Of a stretch of 47,915 nt of DNA, positions 1 to 47,915 are shown in pieces. The stretch is from Escherichia phage vB_EcoS-BECP10. Where the stretch lies: sequence record MW286156.1, one strand, 5' to 3'. Position 1 is the first letter of the stretch; each line of letters begins with the position of its first letter. Below the pieces are notes generated by a model, which did not search any database, was not told where the DNA came from, and worked only from the letters and a program-made list of their open reading frames with translations. The translations under genes and the position numbers were made by a program.

Positions 1-99
1 ACGAATAGCACTTTTTGCTAAAGACAAATGGGGATGGCAAGGCTATAGTAAACTCATCAACAACGAGGAGATAGATATGAAGGTAAAAATAACAGCACT
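1..99. repeat. Terminal direct repeat: bases 1-99 are identical to 47817-47915 (window wraps around a circular or terminally redundant genome)
   Basis: Exact match of the first 99 nt to the last 99 nt, read directly from the sequence. Confidence 0.9.
4..76 (+). promoter_or_regulatory. Early promoter module 1: TAGCA-N5-TGCTA element (6-20), -10-like TATAGT, leader CTCATCAACAACGAGGAG
   Basis: AATAGCACTTTTTGCTAAAG followed about 22 nt later by TATAGT and a box-2 variant, then RBS GAGGAG and ATG at 77. Confidence 0.6.
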
Positions 100-271
100 A
101 AGTAAAACGGATGGTTTTGACGATGAAGAATACGAATTCTACGGCCTTGAGCCTGGTGGTGTTTACAATGTAGTGGCTGTATACGAAGAGCTTGAGTCAA
201 TGGTGATAAAGAACAAGCATGATAGAAACGTAATGGTATACAACTTCGAGGTAGAGCGGTATGAAGATTGA
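77..271 (+). CDS. Hypothetical early protein (64 aa)
   Basis: ORF track; strong RBS GAGGAG 7 nt upstream; first gene after module 1. Confidence 0.5.
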   Translation: MKVKITALSKTDGFDDEEYEFYGLEPGGVYNVVAVYEELESMVIKNKHDRNVMVYNFEVERYED

Positions 272-440
272 TAAAGACGATTTGCGCCACGAATGCGCAC
301 TGATTGGACTTAACGAAGTTTACACCAACCTTGTGCTGCGCGGAAAGCTGGACATTGATTTGGCTAAGCAATTCCAGTCAGAAGATGAATTTCTGTGCTG
401 CGATGGACTTGGCTGCGTCGAATGTTTACCATTTATTTGA
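261..440 (+). CDS. Hypothetical small Cys-rich protein (59 aa, CCDGLGCVEC)
   Basis: Hand-translated ORF overlapping stop of previous gene (ATG at 261); below the 60-aa track cutoff. Confidence 0.3.
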   Translation: MKIDKDDLRHECALIGLNEVYTNLVLRGKLDIDLAKQFQSEDEFLCCDGLGCVECLPFI

Positions 441-450
441 GGATTGAGAT

Positions 451-690
451 ATGAAAATTCGCTGCACAAACGTTATTAACAGTACAGACAAAAAGGTTTT
501 GACGCCATTTGTAAAAGGCTCTGTATACGAAGCTGAGCTGCTAATCATTAACTGCAAGACAATCCCGAACGAGTGGGTGATTAATGGCGCCGAGCGACCG
601 CACAAGCACGATTCTGGATGGATTGCTATCGCAGGTTGGAAGGTCGGAATGTTTATCCCTGGTGTCGCAACTTTTGATGAGGTGAGGTAA
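451..690 (+). CDS. Hypothetical early protein (79 aa)
   Basis: ORF track; RBS GAGGATTGAG upstream. Confidence 0.5.
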   Translation: MKIRCTNVINSTDKKVLTPFVKGSVYEAELLIINCKTIPNEWVINGAERPHKHDSGWIAIAGWKVGMFIPGVATFDEVR

Positions 691-843
691 ATGCTTAAAC
701 CATCTGATTTGAACTATTACGATCTAGAAACTATAGCAAAGTACAGCGGTAAGGGTTGGCCTGTTGGTGACTACTTCAAAGAAGATTTGATTGAGAGCTT
801 CAACATCGTCCAGAAGGCAATTGCAAAAGCAGCAAAGAAATAG
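691..843 (+). CDS. Hypothetical small protein (50 aa)
   Basis: Hand-translated; RBS GAGGTGAGG; ATG abuts previous stop; TAG stop lies inside the next IR element. Confidence 0.35.
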   Translation: MLKPSDLNYYDLETIAKYSGKGWPVGDYFKEDLIESFNIVQKAIAKAAKK

Positions 844-917
844 CACGAATTGCTAAAGCCCTTCGTGGCTTTTATTGTATATTCATCTCATCGAAACGAA
901 ACTAAGGAATCACGAAG
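839..917 (+). promoter_or_regulatory. Early promoter module 2: IR 841-855, hairpin AAGCCCTTCGTGGCTT, TGTATATT, CATCGAAACGAAA
   Basis: TAGCACGAATTGCTA, then 22 nt containing a GC hairpin, TATATT, conserved leader, RBS AAGGA. Confidence 0.65.
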
Positions 918-1220
918 ATGATTAACATGAACCTGTTTACAGCCGAAGACCATAACAACATGAATGAATTAGCTAACCTTTTCGAGACTGCTGGCATGGC
1001 AGAGATGTTCATGACTGAAAATGAGTTCAAGGATGGCATTAGCAACGCTATCGAAACAAATTTCGGTGATGCTCGCGTGACTGGTTCAATGTTCGCAAAC
1101 ATCGCTCGTAAATTCTTCCAGACGTACCGCGATTCACGCCACGCAAAGGGCACTTTTGGTGCCGCTAAAAGCGTAGGCGAAACAATCCGCGACTATATCG
1201 AACGTCATAACGCTAACTAA
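918..1220 (+). CDS. Hypothetical early protein (100 aa)
   Basis: ORF track; directly downstream of module 2. Confidence 0.5.
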   Translation: MINMNLFTAEDHNNMNELANLFETAGMAEMFMTENEFKDGISNAIETNFGDARVTGSMFANIARKFFQTYRDSRHAKGTFGAAKSVGETIRDYIERHNAN

Positions 1221-1245
1221 TAACAAACCAAAAAGGAAAATAGTA

Positions 1246-1599
1246 ATGGCTACCACTATCACTAAAAACTGGATCAGCTCAGATAACAATCTGTTTAAAG
1301 CTCGCGTTAAAGATGGTATTGAGCAAATCAAGATTCATGGTAAATGGCAAAATCTCACTGGCCGGGGTCGTTACGTCAAGACCAAGACTTTGCTTTGCAC
1401 TTTCGTGAACCACAAGTCACCACTCAAGAAGAGTTTCAGTAAGGGTAAGCGTTACCAGGTATCAATGACTGCATCACTTGGTCGTAACGCTGGGTATATT
1501 TATGATGAAGACGGCGAGGGCTGGCAGTTGACGCGTGATGAAGAAGTTGGCTTTGATGTGGGTTATGGGATGTATAAGTTTGAGGCGGCTTACAAATGA
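1246..1599 (+). CDS. Early protein, paralog family member 1 (117 aa)
   Basis: ORF track; RBS AAAGGAAAA; about 60 percent identical to 2415..2768 by eye (shared KTKTLLCT, GKRYQ, LGRNAGYIYD, GWQLTRD, GMYKFEA). Confidence 0.6.
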   Translation: MATTITKNWISSDNNLFKARVKDGIEQIKIHGKWQNLTGRGRYVKTKTLLCTFVNHKSPLKKSFSKGKRYQVSMTASLGRNAGYIYDEDGEGWQLTRDEEVGFDVGYGMYKFEAAYK

Positions 1600-1805
1600 T
1601 TGTTTCAGGTTATTCCATCGCTGTTTATTGCGACTGTAAGAAGTGCTCAACTGAGTCAAATTATGATGGTTCTTATTTTATGCCACACTATACGGACGCT
1701 GCGGGCGAGAACTTTTCTGATTGTGCAAGGCAACTTAAAGATGCTGGGTGGGTTTTGCATAAGAAGGATGGAAAATGCTATGCGCCAGGGCACTTAAAAA
1801 AATAG
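1596..1805 (+). CDS. Hypothetical Cys-rich small protein (69 aa)
   Basis: ORF track; ATGA overlap with previous gene; CDCKKC and other Cys residues. Confidence 0.45.
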   Translation: MIVSGYSIAVYCDCKKCSTESNYDGSYFMPHYTDAAGENFSDCARQLKDAGWVLHKKDGKCYAPGHLKK

Positions 1806-1883
1806 CACTTTTTGCTAATGACACTACCCGCTTCGGCGGGTATATTTGTTTCCATCAAGAAGACAAGCACTAAGGTGAACAAA
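1801..1883 (+). promoter_or_regulatory. Early promoter module 3: IR 1803-1817, hairpin CCCGCTTCGGCGGG, TATATT
   Basis: AATAGCACTTTTTGCTAATG, GC hairpin, TATATTTG, RBS TAAGGTG. Confidence 0.55.
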
Positions 1884-2000
1884 ATGAAAAACATCTCTAA
1901 AGCAGTTGATGCGGTAATGGAACAAGTAATTAAGTTTGGTTTCTTTGGCTTCATGGGCGCAATCGCTGTTGTAGTTGGCAAATGTCTGGTTGGTCTTTAA
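1884..2000 (+). CDS. Small hydrophobic protein (38 aa, predicted membrane helix)
   Basis: Internal ATG of track ORF 1812..2000 with RBS; FGFFGFMGAIAVVVG hydrophobic segment. Confidence 0.3.
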   Translation: MKNISKAVDAVMEQVIKFGFFGFMGAIAVVVGKCLVGL

Positions 2001-2080
2001 TGGCACTTTTTGCTAAAGACCTTAACAACAAAAATTGATATATTCTCTTCATCGAAACAAAACAACGAAAGGCAAAGAAA
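1999..2080 (+). promoter_or_regulatory. Early promoter module 4: variant IR TGGCAC-N5-TGCTA (2001-2015), TGATATATT, CTTCATCGAAAC
   Basis: TGGCACTTTTTGCTAAAG then extended -10-like TGATATATT and leader box. Confidence 0.55.
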
Positions 2081-2254
2081 ATGATTATTTTGACTCTGAT
2101 GGTTATCGCAGTATTCTTCCCTACGGTTGCCCTGATGGTTGTTGAAGTGATTGATGCTCGCGACACTAAAAAAACTTACGAAGCAATCAATGCTAACCGC
2201 CGCCCTTCCAAGTTCGAAGGTGCTAAATTCTCTACCAACTACAAGGCTCACTAA
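2081..2254 (+). CDS. Small membrane protein (57 aa)
   Basis: Hand-translated; RBS AAAGGCAAAG; N-terminal hydrophobic helix MIILTLMVIAVFFPTVALMVV. Confidence 0.35.
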   Translation: MIILTLMVIAVFFPTVALMVVEVIDARDTKKTYEAINANRRPSKFEGAKFSTNYKAH

Positions 2255-2418
2255 TGTTTGACAACTTTCATGACGCAATTGAGGAGGCTGCATTCAGGGC
2301 ATCACTTGATCGGAAGATTTACGGTTTAGTTCAGAAGGTTGATAAGATTGTGGTGCGTATCGTGCGCAAATCAGTACCAAACAAATTCATGTGGACAACG
2401 AAGAGATTAACAAAATGA
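2254..2418 (+). CDS. Hypothetical small protein (54 aa)
   Basis: Hand-translated; TAATG overlap upstream and ATGA overlap with next gene. Confidence 0.3.
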   Translation: MFDNFHDAIEEAAFRASLDRKIYGLVQKVDKIVVRIVRKSVPNKFMWTTKRLTK

Positions 2419-2768
2419 CTACTACACTGACTAAAAACTTCATTAGCAACAATAATGTACTCTACAAAGCTCGCGTTAAAGATGGTTTAGAGCAGATCAA
2501 GAAAAATGGAAAATGGATTAACCTTGAAGAGCGCGGCAAATACATTAAGACAAAGACACTACTTTGCACCAAGGTTGACCACAGCAATCCACTTAAGAAA
2601 TCATTCACTGAAGGTAAGCGTTATCAGATATCTATGCACGCTGGATTAGGTCGTAATGCTGGCTATATCTACGACAATGAAGGTGACGGCTGGCAGCTCA
2701 CTCGCGATGATGAAGTTGGCTATGATGTAGGCTTTGGGATGTATAAGTTTGAGGCCCAATACAAATGA
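2415..2768 (+). CDS. Early protein, paralog family member 2 (117 aa)
   Basis: Internal start of track ORF 2391..2768 matching the N-terminus of 1246..1599 (MTTTLTKNF vs MATTITKNW). Confidence 0.6.
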   Translation: MTTTLTKNFISNNNVLYKARVKDGLEQIKKNGKWINLEERGKYIKTKTLLCTKVDHSNPLKKSFTEGKRYQISMHAGLGRNAGYIYDNEGDGWQLTRDDEVGYDVGFGMYKFEAQYK

Positions 2769-2959
2769 ATGAGAATGTAAGAATCTACATAACAAGAGAT
2801 GCGATTTATTGCAAGTCTCTACAGTACGGAACTAAGTACAGATACTGCAAAGATAGAGGCCGCTTCTGTGTTATTGATTACATAAACCTTGATGGATTGC
2901 TTGAAACTTTTCTAGATACATTCCCAAGCGATAAGCTTTGGAACGGAGTTCCTTTTTAG
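2765..2959 (+). CDS. Hypothetical small protein (64 aa)
   Basis: ORF track; ATGA overlap with previous gene. Confidence 0.45.
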   Translation: MNENVRIYITRDAIYCKSLQYGTKYRYCKDRGRFCVIDYINLDGLLETFLDTFPSDKLWNGVPF

Positions 2960-2961
2960 TA

Positions 2962-3037
2962 AATAGCACTAATTGCTAAAGCCCTTCGGGGCTTTTCCTG
3001 TATATTCATCTCATCGAAACGAAATGGAGTTACTAAA
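2962..3037 (+). promoter_or_regulatory. Early promoter module 5: IR 2964-2978, hairpin AAGCCCTTCGGGGCTT, TGTATATT, CATCGAAACGAAA
   Basis: AAATAGCACTAATTGCTAAAG, hairpin, TATATT, conserved leader, RBS GGAG. Confidence 0.65.
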
Positions 3038-3259
3038 ATGATTAACTTTAAAGAAGCAGCAACAGAAATTATGGACTTCGAGCGAGAGCTAATATGGATG
3101 GGACATAATATGACCAATCTGGAAATTGCTAACCAGATTTGGCACTCTAAGATGAATCCACAGGATAGATTAGAAGTTATGAACATAGTGGGCGAAGTGA
3201 AAGGTAGTGCATTAATGAAGCTTCGCGCTTGTCATTCTTACATTGCCAAGCAACTTTAA
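3038..3259 (+). CDS. Hypothetical early protein (73 aa)
   Basis: ORF track; downstream of module 5. Confidence 0.45.
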   Translation: MINFKEAATEIMDFERELIWMGHNMTNLEIANQIWHSKMNPQDRLEVMNIVGEVKGSALMKLRACHSYIAKQL

Positions 3260-3272
3260 GGGGGTAGATAAT

Positions 3273-3464
3273 ATGACGCAGGAGCAGGTTGTACAACTAA
3301 TGGTACGCTATAACCAGATATTAGCATTACTTAAGGCTGAGCGTGTAGACCAATCTGACCGCGATGCTGTAAAGGCGTGCCTATCTGAGACTGTTCAACC
3401 AAAACATAACTATGACTGTTATATTTACTTTTACGGTAGGACAATACCGTTTGATTTGGAATAG
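3273..3464 (+). CDS. Hypothetical early protein (63 aa)
   Basis: Internal ATG of track ORF 3243..3464 preceded by RBS AAGGGGG. Confidence 0.4.
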   Translation: MTQEQVVQLMVRYNQILALLKAERVDQSDRDAVKACLSETVQPKHNYDCYIYFYGRTIPFDLE

Positions 3465-3505
3465 CGTTAGTTTGTATTTTCTTTGATTGATATATCAAAC
3501 TAGCA

Positions 3506-3586
3506 AATAGCACTTTTTGCTAAAACAAAATCGCAAGGATGCGGTATTATCTTTACATCGAAACGAAAAAGCGAAAGGTAAAAAAA
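3506..3586 (+). promoter_or_regulatory. Early promoter module 6: IR 3508-3522, hairpin CGCAAGGATGCG, TATTAT, CATCGAAACGAAA
   Basis: AATAGCACTTTTTGCTAAAAC, hairpin, TATTAT, leader, RBS AAAGG. Confidence 0.65.
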
Positions 3587-3838
3587 ATGAATACTTCAAA
3601 TAAAAACTTTATTACTTCATATAAAAAACTCCTTAAAGAACGCCTTGGTAAAAAAGACTTAGGGCATGACAAAATGGGATTTAAAGAAGGAAATCCTCAT
3701 CATGTTCTCGTGACTGGTTCAATATCCGGATCAACTAGCTACATTTACGACGAACATGGGAACGAGCGGCAGCTATACCTTAATGATGACTCTGGAACCT
3801 GCACCATTTGCGGAACATACGCATGGGAGGTTCAATAA
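3587..3838 (+). CDS. Early protein, divergent paralog family member 3 (83 aa)
   Basis: Internal start of track ORF 3539..3838; shares NKNFI...YIYDE.G motifs with the two 117-aa paralogs. Confidence 0.45.
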   Translation: MNTSNKNFITSYKKLLKERLGKKDLGHDKMGFKEGNPHHVLVTGSISGSTSYIYDEHGNERQLYLNDDSGTCTICGTYAWEVQ

Positions 3839-3844
3839 AAATTT

Positions 3845-3919
3845 AATAGCACAAATTGATAATGAATTATAAGCGGTCGTTGATATAATGGCCGCTCAGA
3901 AACAACACGGAGAGAAGTA
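3845..3919 (+). promoter_or_regulatory. Promoter module 7: degenerate IR TAGCAC-N5-TGATA (3847-3861), hairpin, TGATATAAT
   Basis: AATAGCACAAATTGATAATG, hairpin GCGGTCG..., extended -10-like TGATATAAT, RBS GGAGAG. Confidence 0.5.
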
Positions 3920-5503
3920 ATGTTTGATTTCAACGAAGATAAACTATCTGTCGAGCAGGTAATGTCTGTTGCAGCAGCCGAGAATTTACCACCTCTGCGA
4001 GTAGCAATTAATGCAAATGGCTATCGTCAGAGCGCATCATTCTGGAAAGCTCCTGTCGAGATTGATTCCACTGGAGACAAATATCCAGTCATCTCGCTCG
4101 GCAATGATTGTGATGTCGTTGGTAAGTTATCAAGCAATATCGCACGCTCTGTTCAGTTCCCGGAGTCATCTGCTTATATGCACTTCCTGGGATGTATTTC
4201 AGCCGCAATGCTTGGTCGATTCACAGTTGAGTATCATGGCACTCAGCAGCCTACTGCGCTGTACGTCGTAACCAGTCAGCCACCATCAACTGGTAAATCT
4301 GCTATTAACTCATTGTCAATCGCGCCAATGATTGCAGAAACTGAGCGACTGAATGAATTACGCAAGCGTGACCGTAAGAAGATTATGGCTAAGTTGTCAG
4401 CCCTGGCAAAAGAAATGAAGCAAGAGAAGTCACCATCTGAGATGGCTGGATTATTCGAAGAGAAAGAGGAGTTGGAAGAGAAGTTAGAAAAGCTGTGTGA
4501 CATTGTGTTCCCAGTATCCGACACCACTCCGGAAGGTCTTGCGCGAATTAACAGTCGTCAGGGTAACTTCTCCGTCATCTCGGATGAGGCAACAAGTGTG
4601 AACTCATTACTTGGCATGACATACGGTGATGGCTCGAAGAAAACGAACAGCGAGCTCGTTCTTAAGGCGTGGGATGCTGGTAACGTATCTATAGCGCGTG
4701 CGAATGCAGAGAATAACATGAGTTTTGTTGCCATGGGCTGTATTTCTGTAATTGCGCAGGATGAGACAATAGTTGCGATCATGAATGCCGGTGCTCGTGG
4801 TATTGGTGTCTCAGAACGTTTCTTGCTAGTACGTGAGAAATCACTCCTTGGTGAGCGTGTGTTCGTCGATGATGATGGCGAGTCAACATATGAACCAATT
4901 GACGGATCGTTGAAGGCTGATTACTTCCGTCTTGTTCATGAAATTATGAGTGAGCAAGATGTGAAGTTGACTATTAGTAACTCAGCAATGAAGCACCTTA
5001 ACCGTGCTCGACAGGAAATGGAGCCACACCTTGCAGATGGCGGTAAGTATTCACACACAATGCTGCGCGGCGCGTTAGGTAAAATGGATAAACAGGTAAT
5101 TCGCCTTGCTGCCGTTCTTCACACTATCCGTAACTGGTTTAACCCCAATGGCGGTAGTCCGCAGAAGTCCAGGGAGATTGAACTGGAAACCATGCAAGAG
5201 GCTTTGTTGATGTTTGGAGAACTTAGTAAGACTTACTTATCCTCAGCTAACGCAGCTGGTCATGCTGGCGATAACGCTGAGATGAACAAGTTAATTGATA
5301 TCCTTATCAAGCAAGGCAAGAACAGTAAAGGAGTTGTGGGTTTGCGTTCACTTTATGAAGCTGCGCGTAAGGTTCGACCTTTCGAGTCACAGGCTGGTGT
5401 TATGGCTAAAATTAAAGACCACTTACTCCCGATGCTTGATGATAAAAACTATACCTGCCTGATTGGTGACAAGGTATATATCAATCCACGGCTGCTGGGG
5501 TAA
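3920..5503 (+). CDS. P-loop ATPase of unknown function (527 aa); N- and C-terminal regions paralogous to 46081..46641
   Basis: ORF track; Walker A-like SQPPSTGKS and Walker B-like VISDEAT; N-terminus MFDFNEDKL...NLPPLRVAIN.NGYRQS and C-terminus shared with the 186-aa ORF. Confidence 0.6.
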   Translation: MFDFNEDKLSVEQVMSVAAAENLPPLRVAINANGYRQSASFWKAPVEIDSTGDKYPVISLGNDCDVVGKLSSNIARSVQFPESSAYMHFLGCISAAMLGRFTVEYHGTQQPTALYVVTSQPPSTGKSAINSLSIAPMIAETERLNELRKRDRKKIMAKLSALAKEMKQEKSPSEMAGLFEEKEELEEKLEKLCDIVFPVSDTTPEGLARINSRQGNFSVISDEATSVNSLLGMTYGDGSKKTNSELVLKAWDAGNVSIARANAENNMSFVAMGCISVIAQDETIVAIMNAGARGIGVSERFLLVREKSLLGERVFVDDDGESTYEPIDGSLKADYFRLVHEIMSEQDVKLTISNSAMKHLNRARQEMEPHLADGGKYSHTMLRGALGKMDKQVIRLAAVLHTIRNWFNPNGGSPQKSREIELETMQEALLMFGELSKTYLSSANAAGHAGDNAEMNKLIDILIKQGKNSKGVVGLRSLYEAARKVRPFESQAGVMAKIKDHLLPMLDDKNYTCLIGDKVYINPRLLG

Positions 5504-5507
5504 TTAA

Positions 5508-5843
5508 ATGTTCATCCTTGATGTGTTCAAGTTCTGCGAGAGCTACGAAAAGTTTAACAGGCAGCACCTGGCGGTATTCATTTACCGCCACAAAGAATGT
5601 GAAAGAATGGCTAAGGCAGCTGGAGTTAATGCGCGTTACTTTGCATCATCTGCGTCAAAGGAGTTTCTGGCAAGATGCATGACTGAAGGTTACATCGATG
5701 GAGTTAATGGCAGTTACTGGAGCAAAGGAAGCACGAAGCGACCATTCGGTTTTAGCTTTAGGTGCCTCGGAGGTGAGAGTGATAAGTACACCAATGAGAT
5801 GATGACCATAAAAGAAATGACAGACGACCAACTGTTCGCGTAA
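5508..5843 (+). CDS. Hypothetical protein (111 aa)
   Basis: ORF track; last gene of the plus-strand early arm. Confidence 0.45.
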   Translation: MFILDVFKFCESYEKFNRQHLAVFIYRHKECERMAKAAGVNARYFASSASKEFLARCMTEGYIDGVNGSYWSKGSTKRPFGFSFRCLGGESDKYTNEMMTIKEMTDDQLFA

Positions 5844-5845
5844 AA

Positions 5846-5872
5846 TAAAGGAGCCATTAGGCTCCTTTTTTG
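5846..5872. terminator. Bidirectional intrinsic terminator between convergent early and lysis transcription units
   Basis: Hairpin AAAGGAGCC-ATTA-GGCTCCTTT flanked by A and T runs. Confidence 0.6.
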
Positions 5873-6261
5873 TTTCCTGCGAATCTTAAAGCGAAGTAAG
5901 TTAGCAAACCTGAAACTAATCCAGCCAGAATACCCCAGACTAAAGAGTCAAAGCCAGAATTTTCAGTGCTATGAATTTCAATCTTTTCAGCTGTTATTGT
6001 GTTGGCTGATAGTCCTGTAGCGGCTGTCTTTTTCTGGCTTGATGAATCTACGTCTCTGTTAGTTGAGTTGCGCATGTCGCTTTCTGTTGAGCTAGATTTG
6101 TCTGTTTGATTTGACAATCCAACTCCTGTTTTCTGGTTGGACTCACCAACCTGCGCGGTTGCCTCTACGCCATCCTTTGCTGGTAAGAAATCAGAAATGG
6201 CTGACATAGCAGAGCACCCTGTCAGCAAGATAATTGCCAGAACTACAACTCCGAAACGCAT
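5857..6261 (-). CDS. Unimolecular spanin (outer-membrane lipoprotein with C-terminal TM helix, T1 gp11-like)
   Basis: Lipobox LLTGC after signal peptide; C-terminal hydrophobic helix LVWGILAGLVSGLLTYFAL; position 3' of the endolysin. Confidence 0.65.
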   Translation of the reverse strand: MRFGVVVLAIILLTGCSAMSAISDFLPAKDGVEATAQVGESNQKTGVGLSNQTDKSSSTESDMRNSTNRDVDSSSQKKTAATGLSANTITAEKIEIHSTENSGFDSLVWGILAGLVSGLLTYFALRFAGNKKGA

Positions 6262-7614: not shown

Positions 7615-7691
7615 CTTTGTATCCTCTCGTTTGTTTAGATGGGGTAACTATACCCCATCTTTTGATTTTCGTTTTAGCAATTCGTGCTATT
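7615..7691 (-). promoter_or_regulatory. Promoter module 9 (minus): IR 7675-7689, hairpin overlapping TATAGT, leader variant CATCTAAACAAACGAGAGG
   Basis: Minus-strand reading AAATAGCACGAATTGCTAAAAC then GGGGTATAGTTACCCC and a box-2 variant. Confidence 0.55.
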
Positions 7692-21003: not shown

Positions 21004-21088
21004 ATAGCACGATTTGCTAAAGACTCCAGCAGAAGCCTTTGCTATAGTTACTCCATCGAAACGAAACATACTTACTAAGGAATACAAA
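21004..21088 (+). promoter_or_regulatory. Promoter module 8: IR 21006-21020, TGCTATAGT, CATCGAAACGAAA
   Basis: AAATAGCACGATTTGCTAAAG, about 23-nt spacer, extended -10-like TGCTATAGT, leader, RBS AAGGA. Confidence 0.65.
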
Positions 21089-46023: not shown

Positions 46024-46098
46024 GGTTATTTCCTCTTTGTTGTTGATAGGGTAATCATAGCTGACTACCCAATTTATTGTTTAGCAATTTGTGCTATA
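46024..46098 (-). promoter_or_regulatory. Promoter module 18 (minus): IR 46082-46096, hairpin over TATGAT, leader CCCTATCAACAACAAAGAGG
   Basis: Minus-strand AATATAGCACAAATTGCTAAAC then GGGTA...TACCC hairpin and box-2 variant. Confidence 0.6.
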
Positions 46099-46641
46099 TT
46101 CACCATTCAGGAGAGCTTTCGCTTTCCGGTAGAACTGTATGGCCTTCTCCACCTCATCGGCATCATAGCCATGGATTGTTGTTTGCGGTGGCACGTAGTT
46201 TGAGCGTGGCGCGTCGGATCGGCACTGACTGCACCAGTTTTGCACGTCGTCCTTATCCATCTCAACCAGGGCCGGATGAACATAAATCTTATCGCCAATG
46301 AGGCAAACAATTCCCGCCTCCTGTAGTTCTGGGATGATGTTATTTGTCAGGTCATGCATAATCCCTTCGCGCCCGACGAATGGCTGGACCTTTCGGATTG
46401 CCTCGTATAGAGATCGAATGCCAACCACTCCATTCCAGCCCTGGCGTCTAATCCTGCTCACTACGACGCCGTATTTGTAGCTCAACTTGACGCACAGCAT
46501 CTCTTCGGCGCTGGGCCAGAAATTGAATGATTGGCGGTATCCATTAGTATTGATTGCCACACGAAGTGGCGGCAGGTTATCTTGCCTGGCGACTTCCATC
46601 ACCTGGTCATCAGTTAACTTATCTTCGTCGAAATCAAACAT
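46081..46641 (-). CDS. Short paralog (186 aa) of the N- and C-terminal regions of the 527-aa ATPase, lacking the ATPase core
   Basis: MFDFDEDKLTDDQVMEVARQDNLPPLRVAINTNGYRQS and GVVGIRSLYEAIRKVQPF...CLIGDKIYVHPAL align with both ends of 3920..5503. Confidence 0.55.
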   Translation of the reverse strand: MFDFDEDKLTDDQVMEVARQDNLPPLRVAINTNGYRQSFNFWPSAEEMLCVKLSYKYGVVVSRIRRQGWNGVVGIRSLYEAIRKVQPFVGREGIMHDLTNNIIPELQEAGIVCLIGDKIYVHPALVEMDKDDVQNWCSQCRSDAPRSNYVPPQTTIHGYDADEVEKAIQFYRKAKALLNGEYSTNC

Positions 46642-47816: not shown

Positions 47817-47915
47817 ACGAATAGCACTTTTTGCTAAAGACAAATGGGGATGGCAAGGCTATAGTAAACTCATCAACAACGAGGAGATAGATATGAAGGT
47901 AAAAATAACAGCACT
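47817..47915. repeat. Second copy of the terminal direct repeat (duplicates IR module 1 and the first codons of the 77..271 gene)
   Basis: Identical to 1-99. Confidence 0.9.

Follow-up and report, generated by a model that had tools for sequence, protein, structure and literature searches.

T1-like phages are abundant and notorious laboratory contaminants that are used in defence-system research (BASEL Bas01-13, SECphi27), and around half of their genes are unannotated small open reading frames (ORFs). In phage TLS, German, Kropinski, Misra and colleagues (2024) described 21 copies of a 21-nucleotide (nt) direct repeat, aaATAGCACnnnTTGnTAAAA, lying ~76 nt upstream of start codons, with similar repeats in T1, Rtp and Rogue1; a stoperator, an enhancer site and an UP element were put forward as candidate functions (PMC11447400). 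A second described system, the promoter-early stem-loop (PeSL) cassettes, comes from T4-type phages (Arbiol et al. 2010, PMC2839356; Comeau et al. 2014, PMC4122927). Here we describe the arm of small genes that opens the genome of Escherichia phage vB_EcoS-BECP10 (MW286156.1; the whole stretch of 47,915 nt is called the window). Cassettes bearing a repeat of the TLS type stand before its gene units, and it holds three members of a family related to T1 gp07: parA (1246-1599), parB (2415-2768) and parC (3587-3838). The reading that we favour, with a probability of about 0.6, is that the arm is a mosaic whose units have been shuffled at these cassettes, so that three alleles of a normally single-copy gene came to be stacked.

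By megablast the window was placed in Rogunavirus (Drexlerviridae), among the T1-like coliphages. Its first and last 99 nt (1-99 and 47817-47915) are exactly the same, and it is therefore a circularly closed assembly of a whole 47.8-kb genome. This duplication is the overlap of a circular assembly rather than a biological terminal repeat, and the first cassette and the start of the first gene (o01) are therefore present twice in the window. In annotated relatives the arm appears as small 'hypothetical' genes leading into a DUF3987 'DNA helicase', with the lysis cassette next on the opposite strand. Positions 5900-30000 are fully collinear with UDF157lw at 97.5% identity, while for 1-6000 megablast found Rogue1 and UDF157lw at 95% identity with a coverage of only 70%. 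No phage record covering at least 80% of 1-6000 or of 1950-3920 was found, the best coverage being at most 70% and at most 34%, respectively.

Within the arm the closest relative changes from segment to segment. Positions 1-2095 are 98.8% identical to UDF157lw, with similarity ending at 2095. Similarity to Rtp begins at 2041, and 2041-2770 corresponds to the Rtp unit rtp71-rtp70-rtp69 (82%). The best match to 2771-2960, which contains the gene o12, reached only 69%; it is followed by 2961-3599, resembling GaoY1-9D (88.5%), and 3538-5506, resembling an uncultured lineage represented by L069 (80%). Against UDF157lw, the helicase-like gene (3920-5503) shows ~80% identity up to 4700, a gradual rise, and 100% from 5268. 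The junctions at 2041-2095, 2961, 3538-3599 and 3843 lie in cassettes and a fifth lies in the helicase-like gene. Moreover, the cassette at 3505-3586 is a hybrid, its palindrome and hairpin matching GaoY1-9D and its -10 box and leader matching L069; together with the relatives of the segments, this assigns four junctions to cassettes and one to the helicase-like gene. As a separate observation, that gene is itself recombinant; the protein it encodes shares 98% identity with its counterpart in Shigella phage Sf12.

These data suggest the following course of events. The arm is the hyperplastic small-gene region that all T1-like phages carry upstream of the DUF3987 helicase-like gene, organised in short transcription units. 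Because the cassettes are conserved between otherwise diverged phages, they could act as recombination joints, at which whole units would be exchanged between co-infecting relatives. A UDF157lw-like backbone would have received a foreign tract reaching from ~2096, in a cassette, to ~4700-5260, in the helicase-like gene. The left crossover, at a non-allelic cassette, would amount to an unequal exchange, so that resident units were kept while foreign ones were added: an Rtp-type unit, a GaoY1-9D-type unit, and an L069-like parC with the 5′ part of the helicase-like gene. Since each donor segment would have brought its own gp07-like version, three diverged copies would have ended up in a row. The annotation of a relative lists exonuclease VIII, a recombinase and a single-stranded DNA-binding protein, which would be expected to support exchange at 50-90 nt of homology. 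The features of the arm are given below; the related loci mentioned there and later number 57 and were recovered from IMG/VR via the helicase-like protein.

3-76, + strand: candidate promoter cassette 1; inverted repeat (IR) TAGCA-N5-TGCTA at 6-20, -10-like TATAGT at 44-49, leader and ribosome-binding site (RBS); copy at 47819-47915
77-271, + strand: o01, 64 amino acids (aa), acidic, phrog_14327 (function unknown); in only 2 of the 57 related loci
261-440, + strand: o02, 59 aa, 5 Cys, C-terminal CCDGLGCVEC, phrog_9053
451-690, + strand: o03, 79 aa, phrog_4448; common among Rogunavirinae and Braunvirinae
691-843, + strand: o04, 50 aa, phrog_4548
838-917, + strand: candidate promoter cassette 2; IR, terminator-like hairpin AAAGCCCTTCGTGGCTTT and T-run, TATATT, leader CATCGAAACGAAA
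918-1220, + strand: o05, 100 aa, phrog_12926
1246-1599, + strand: parA, 117 aa, T1 gp07-like (phrog_2684), 100% identical to the Rogue1 protein; two small beta-barrels predicted
1596-1805, + strand: o07, 69 aa, 5 Cys, phrog_926
1800-1883, + strand: candidate promoter cassette 3; IR, hairpin TACCCGCTTCGGCGGGTA, TATATT
1884-2000, + strand: o08, 38-aa peptide with a hydrophobic helix at its C-terminus, phrog_11986; preferred to a 62-aa reading (TTG at 1812) because the latter starts within the promoter cassette
1998-2080, + strand: candidate promoter cassette 4; putative left recombination junction
2081-2254, + strand: o09, 57 aa, N-terminal transmembrane helix; 94% identity to Rtp rtp71; dN/dS (ratio of non-synonymous to synonymous divergence) 0.11
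2254-2418, + strand: o10, 54 aa, basic, phrog_5407, rtp70-like
2415-2768, + strand: parB, 117 aa, gp07-like; 85% identity to the Sf12-type orthologue, only 74% to parA
2765-2959, + strand: o12, 64 aa, 3 Cys, no PHROG; sole relative in phiKP26 (68% identity)
2961-3037, + strand: candidate promoter cassette 5; 94% identity to cassette 2 over 64 nt; similarity breakpoint
3038-3259, + strand: o13, 73 aa, phrog_10996; GaoY1-9D-like (88.5% at the nt level)
3273-3464, + strand: o14, 63 aa, phrog_18624 (profile match begins at this ATG); GaoY1-9D-like
3505-3586, + strand: candidate promoter cassette 6, hybrid; putative crossover within ~3538-3599
3587-3838, + strand: parC, 83 aa, short gp07-like subfamily with an internal deletion; 63% identity to P0052 (uncultured phages)
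3844-3919, + strand: candidate promoter cassette 7, for the helicase-like gene; IR and a hairpin enclosing TGaTATAAT
3920-5503, + strand: DUF3987 'helicase', context of the arm; putative right recombination junction inside
5847-5868, + strand: terminator-like hairpin and T-run, ending the + strand arm

The original prediction had divided the arm into five units driven by inverted repeats. Within 1-3900 we found seven IR cassettes instead, at 5, 840, 1802, 2000, 2963, 3507 and 3846, and these delimit six units of small genes as well as the unit of the helicase-like gene. Each cassette is ~75 nt long and follows one order: aaATAGCAC-N4-TTGCTAAA, containing the palindrome TAGCA-N5-TGCTA; ~21 nt often forming a GC hairpin; a -10-like box (TATAGT or TATATT); and the leader CATCGAAACGAAA, an RBS and the ATG. 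Most cassettes have a hairpin, either between the palindrome and the -10 box with a T-run or around the -10 box, and 7 of 18 copies fold below -10 kcal/mol. Placed in this way, a cassette could terminate the unit before it and open the one after. The aligned cassettes lacked a conserved -35 hexamer 17 nt from the -10 boxes. With the -10 box set at -12 to -7, the centre of the palindrome falls near -42 from the inferred transcription start. Position ~-42 is the classic place of class II activator sites, as in promoters of the CRP/FNR type. Judged by their layout, the cassettes are probably activator-type promoters with built-in terminators, and the arm genes are presumed to be early; no transcriptome of a Drexlerviridae phage against which 'early' could be checked was found in the literature.

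A different view is that the IR is an operator or 'stoperator' for a phage repressor, or an UP element, and that the units are mainly transcribed by read-through from a few promoters. These options were raised by the TLS authors (PMC11447400), and they gain from a sigma-70 scan of 1-6200 that stayed at chance (13 sites against 13.3 expected) and from the missing canonical -35 at 17 nt upstream of the -10 boxes. However, in 16 of 18 copies a TATAnT box follows the A of ATAGCAC at a constant 38-39 nt, the motif is always intergenic, in the direction of the gene and 72-82 nt before its start codon, and the centre near -42 is that of a class II activator. An A/T-rich UP element is also difficult to reconcile with arms that are conserved around 3-4 central nt that vary (TTT, GAA, TAA, AAA), a pattern that points to the site of a dimeric protein. 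We consider the operator or UP-element view unlikely. Other promoter classes were tried and rejected. As a sigma-54 site (TGGCAC-N5-TTGC) the IR has a spacing 2 nt too short, reads AG in place of the invariant GG in 17 of 18 copies, and is followed by a conserved -10 box 22 nt further on. Reading TTGCTA as a -35 box would leave 22-23 nt up to the -10 box, too wide a gap for sigma-70. An extended -10 (TGn) is found only at the cassettes at 2000 and 3846.

Every sub-unit of the arm has an IR module of its own, as proposed, but the module is not special to the arm. ATAGCAC-N4-TGCTAA has 20 copies in the window against 1.7 expected by chance, and every one is co-oriented with its downstream gene. 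Beyond the arm, copies lie on the - strand at 7690, 7954, 9242, 9928, 10613, 13009, 18490, 28183, 44974 and 46097 and on the + strand at 21004. Cassettes also precede recombination, replication and lysis-region genes, and the long structural operon has one copy only. They thus appear, from their distribution in the sequence, to be a general promoter type of non-structural genes and not an arm feature. The operons preceded by an IR and -10 cassette include those of the lysis region, a phosphoesterase, an ATP-dependent helicase, a recombinase, a lipoprotein (cor-like position) and minor tail genes. Among the genes annotated in a relative are predicted regulators, CopG-like ones included. Across 41 related loci, 1-6 co-oriented cassettes were counted ahead of the helicase-like gene, with none detected in L035 and seven in the window. 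In UDF157lw and Rogue1 the cassette equivalent to that at window position 2000 is followed by a different, unannotated ORF of 59 aa and then directly by the helicase-like gene. This ORF (MDIMTTIENIKPG...EVRIK) and a terminator-like hairpin lie on the + strand at ~2145-2325 of the Rogue1 locus (L001) and ~2222-2402 of the UDF157lw locus (L002); the opposite-strand ORFs annotated over it in the two records are probably mis-calls.

The relatedness of the three gp07-like genes was upheld, as all match phrog_2684 (E = 2.5e-52 for parA, 5.7e-51 for parB and 3.6e-6 for parC). The products of parA and parB are 74% identical; that of parC aligns with parB over its last 55 residues (BLASTP, E = 7e-8) and is similar at the N-terminus. 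Five blocks had been proposed as common to all three, namely KTKTLLCT, GKRYQ, LGRNAGYIYD, GWQLTRD and GMYKFEA. They hold for parA and parB but not for parC, which lacks KTKTLLCT through an internal deletion of ~31 residues and has the others in degenerate form (e.g. SYIYDEHG, RQLYLND, GTYAWEV). In Rtp, rtp69 is annotated as similar to T1 gp07. A tblastn search with parA found the family in 801 phage records at 802 places, with one copy each; these take in essentially every member of the Drexlerviridae from Escherichia, Klebsiella, Shigella, Salmonella and Citrobacter. The helicase-like protein was found in 922 records. All 57 related loci contained one family match, which in 55 was co-oriented with the helicase-like gene and ended 75-810 nt before its start; the two exceptions, L061 and L062, gave the weakest matches. 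A HMMER scan of 1.84 billion representative proteins returned only 27 clusters, all short phage proteins save two repeat-protein artefacts, the long proteins P0060 (FG-GAP) and P0062 (SHIRT), which were discarded as repeat beta-hairpin noise. Being near-universal and single-copy, the gp07-like family is therefore the one core gene of the arm. In the window the canonical slot is occupied by parC, which ends 81 nt before the helicase-like gene, with parA and parB further upstream. The rule of one copy per genome is broken by these three copies and by two in the uncultured lineage L069/L070.

No orthologue of parC at 60% identity or more was found in GenBank phages, nor any GenBank phage record with the short type. 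An 82-aa orthologue, 63% identical and in the same slot, was present on 48,030-bp contigs of two sequencing runs and, in a third run, on a 2.8-kb contig; upstream of the parC-type gene, each of the 48-kb contigs also has a full-length family member of 129 aa. Orthologues in the same slot and a dN/dS of 0.43 mark parC as a short subfamily that is being maintained rather than a recent pseudogene. These contigs (L069, 5200-6249; L070; L071; Logan SRR19897735, SRR28167518 and SRR19897739) represent an uncultured T1-like lineage; on the 2.8-kb contig, L071, the short parC-type gene is the only one seen. A further observation concerns the neighbour upstream. A single-pass membrane peptide of the o09 type lies just upstream of a gp07-like gene in three lineages, adjacent to it in GaoY1-9D (L004, 4632-5163) and one gene away in Rtp (L003, 1334-2021) and the window (2081-2768), and the two may form a conserved pairing.

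How the copies came to lie together was assessed from their divergence. The original prediction had seen tandemly diversified paralogs. Local tandem duplication followed by diversification, giving an anti-defence or host-takeover arsenal in which each copy acts on a different host system, would fit an arm that is variable and dispensable in relatives (PMC11578894), the rapid evolution of parC (dN/dS 0.43) and the two-member lineage, which implies that additional copies can persist. One predicted barrel of the family also appears to resemble Bas11 Gp54, which is sensed by CapRel and suspected of counter-defence. However, parA and parB are separated by a saturated synonymous divergence (dS 1.42; dN/dS 0.16) in a backbone only 1-2.5% different from UDF157lw. 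Each copy is closer to orthologues in other phages than to its neighbours in the window, and each is accompanied by neighbours of its donor lineage, travelling as units known in Rtp and GaoY1-9D. Moreover, the family is universal, single-copy in ~800 genomes and under purifying selection, unlike known anti-defence genes, and has zero matches to anti-defence families in Pfam, NCBIfam or PHROGs. We therefore regard local duplication as quite improbable. Tandem diversification is contradicted by the ancient divergence of the copies and by the near-universal, single-copy occurrence of the gene in synteny with the DUF3987 helicase-like gene; the three are indicated not to form a clade, and their sequences point to diverged alleles joined by recombination between lineages rather than to a local expansion. 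Such stacking of a normally single-copy core gene is unusual, but it is no new kind of system.

That 2096-5260 is an assembly chimera of co-occurring T1-like phages joined at shared cassettes is highly improbable: the exact 99-nt terminal overlap does point to short reads assembled through a de Bruijn graph, the left-hand junctions are all in sequences common to several lineages, the exact product of parC (in its 83- or 99-aa reading) has no entry in the public gene-position index and no phage record spans the region at the 80% coverage given above, but the longest exact repeat in the arm (26 nt) is far below k = 99, the arm shares no 25-mers with the rest of the genome, chimerism would be expected to yield alternative paths or broken contigs and not alleles in series, the total of 47.8 kb is inside the family range of 43-53 kb, the pairing of a parC-type gene with a second copy was seen in three independent samples, and the gradual climb from 80% to 100% identity with UDF157lw over the helicase-like gene looks like a natural recombination tract.

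The gene content of the arm largely bore out what had been predicted. Fifteen tiny ORFs were counted on the + strand in 77-3838, as foreseen, all with a plausible RBS or overlapping stop/start coupling. Thirteen of the 15 proteins match PHROGs of unknown function over their full length (quoted E-values of 1e-20 to 3e-68), and the two that do not, o09 (2081-2254) and o12 (2765-2959), have homologues in Rtp and phiKP26. Pairwise dN/dS against orthologues was 0.11 for o09, 0.33 for o13, 0.22 for o14, 0.13 for parB and 0.43 for parC, which shows that these five are translated genes. The two hydrophobic peptides were recovered (maximum 19-residue Kyte-Doolittle mean of 2.09 for 1884-2000 and 2.72 for 2081-2254), as were the Cys-rich mini-proteins, with 5 Cys in 261-440, 5 in 1596-1805 and 3 in 2765-2959. 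No recognisable enzymatic motif was found in the arm genes, again as expected. Searches of Pfam, NCBIfam and PADLOC gave zero family matches for the arm proteins (PADLOC covering 10 of the 15), and Rfam gave no match on 1-6200. The labels 'chemotaxis protein', 'DUF2693 domain-containing protein' and 'Fer2_BFD domain-containing protein' in the UDF157lw arm (OQ243221.1) were not reproduced by Pfam or NCBIfam on the near-identical window proteins; in particular, parA, whose orthologue is labelled DUF2693, parB and parC matched no Pfam family at E up to 10. Against the PDB, a PPR-repeat match of o01 (E = 3.8e-4) had no significant single stretch and was put down to chance, and o03 had no match.

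As to function, we weakly infer that the gp07-like proteins are most likely small basic binding modules (pI 9.4-9.6 for parA and parB) of two SH3-like beta-barrels with a conserved partner; no catalytic motif was found in them. Our preferred guess, a tentative one, links them to the adjacent helicase-like gene or early DNA metabolism, because they are universal, under purifying selection and consistently found next to that gene. That they bind a conserved host protein is about as likely, and a strain-specific anti-defence role is less likely, to the point of being improbable. The other small genes are dispensable accessory genes whose roles may include host takeover or counter-defence, and viable spontaneous deletions in the homologous arm of Bas11 (PMC11578894) support their dispensability. 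The earlier view of the arm as an anti-defence type of locus can be kept in part. The region is variable and accessory, from ~1.2 to 4.9 kb long across related loci, and comparison over the 57 loci found every small gene sporadic except the gp07-like family, whose near-universal single copy is the opposite of a typical anti-defence gene. No characterised inhibitor family was matched by the 15 proteins in Pfam, NCBIfam or PHROGs, with no dedicated anti-defence library among the searches.

The closest experimentally studied protein is Bas11 Gp54 (PDB 9AXB; PF25180), a trigger of CapRelSJ46 that is encoded in the homologous Bas11 arm and for which its discoverers suspect an anti-defence role (Zhang et al. 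2024, PMC11578894). In the window, no homologue of Gp54 could be found by sequence; parA, parB and parC gave no match to PF25180 at E up to 10 (6e-34 for Gp54 itself), and hhalign of the family against Gp54 gave E = 0.12 with a probability of 0.5%. Foldseek against the PDB gave no significant match and did not return 9AXB, a structure search of BFVD found uncharacterised phage proteins only, and a profile search of PDB sequences found nothing. The AlphaFold2 model of parC (pLDDT 54) was too poor for a fold search. The family differs from Gp54 in its extra N-terminal barrel, and Gp54 is sporadic and non-essential whereas the gp07-like family is universal. It is very doubtful, though conceivable, that the gp07-like proteins belong with Gp54 to a single superfamily of rare six-stranded beta-barrels from the Drexlerviridae pre-helicase arm, sensed by host immune sensors of the CapRel type, and that the stacking is adaptive; alleles stacked with the help of the promoter cassettes would then keep an essential function while diluting or escaping recognition, or cover several host targets. 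Equally doubtful is a related reading in which the gp07-like proteins pair up with the helicase-like protein at its N-terminal domain, a domain also present in a 'mini-helicase' paralogue. The latter is an ORF of 186 aa in the divergent arm (46081-46641, - strand) that lacks the ATPase core. Over its first 48 residues this ORF product shares 67% identity with the DUF3987 protein's N-terminus, and over residues ~66-128 it shares 49% with the last ~63 residues of that protein, an end that also matches a separate family, phrog_7327. In P0061 (L068, a 610-bp ENA contig) a 66-aa domain like the helicase N-terminus is fused to a gp07-like C-terminal barrel, and P0038 carries a tandem duplication of that barrel within one ORF; either may point to a functional connection or to mobile domains, although the contig of P0061 is too short to trust. 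Two other candidates were set aside. The lysis module of Drexlerviridae encodes a standalone SH3 protein (DUF7244, PMC13164509), but its gene is a separate one beyond the lysis cassette, and the RAZR trigger Gp77 of SECphi27 comes from an unrelated locus.

Several points weigh against the account given here. The putative promoter role and timing of the cassettes are read from the sequence, and their proposed use in recombination is deduced from five junctions in this one genome. As no donor of the imported tract was present in the collections searched (best 80-88% at the nt level), either a single event from a multi-copy donor or several events may be envisaged. The putative link to the helicase-like gene rests on synteny and universality, evolution is far quicker in the family than in the helicase-like protein (38-55% against ~70% aa identity), and the copy in the canonical slot, parC, is truncated and poorly modelled. 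Furthermore, the one structural neighbour for which data exist, Gp54, triggers immunity and is non-essential (PMC11578894).

The findings do not overturn current views. They do suggest that an arm gene which looked diversified is the only universal gene of the arm and should be studied as a core function, not solely as an anti-defence candidate. Treating the 21-nt repeat as a promoter cassette of fixed geometry and a recombination joint would offer a testable account of mosaic small-gene arms, and the possible structural link to Gp54 may help to trace where the CapRel trigger came from and what its natural role is.

Taken together, the region is a mosaic example of a well-sampled phage region, built of catalogued but uncharacterised gene families and a published repeat; its unusual points are the three stacked alleles, the PeSL-like cassettes and the possible fold link to Gp54. 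Homologous arms (T1 genes 1-10, Rtp rtp75-rtp67, Rogue1 gp74-gp66 and Bas11 genes 55-46) hold the same position, running from the divergent genome junction to the DUF3987 helicase-like gene and the convergent lysis cassette, with the same cassettes and the same gp07-like gene. The window differs in having three family members instead of one and seven cassettes against at most six in the 41 loci. The 21-nt repeat itself is already published and not new. The window cassettes share with the TLS repeat the consensus, the intergenic position, the orientation with transcription, the start-codon distance (~76 nt), the A/T/G subgroups in the centre and a similar copy number (18-21 per genome). In TLS it was described as a direct repeat of unknown role, whereas here it appears as an inverted repeat at ~-42 that is coupled at fixed spacing to a -10 box, is frequently accompanied by a nested hairpin and seems to be a site of exchange between lineages. 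With PeSL cassettes, the window cassettes have in common a small composite promoter/terminator motif, that is a promoter motif plus a stem-loop, beside small ORFs of unknown function in hyperplastic regions, and a position at the borders of indels and gene replacements between close relatives (here in the one genome analysed). However, sequence and phage family are unrelated, the T4-type early promoter is missing, an upstream palindrome takes the place of the -35 box and, unlike PeSL, the Drexlerviridae cassette is also found before replication, recombination and lysis genes. By analogy, the resemblance to PeSL would thus be one of a way of working and not of membership.

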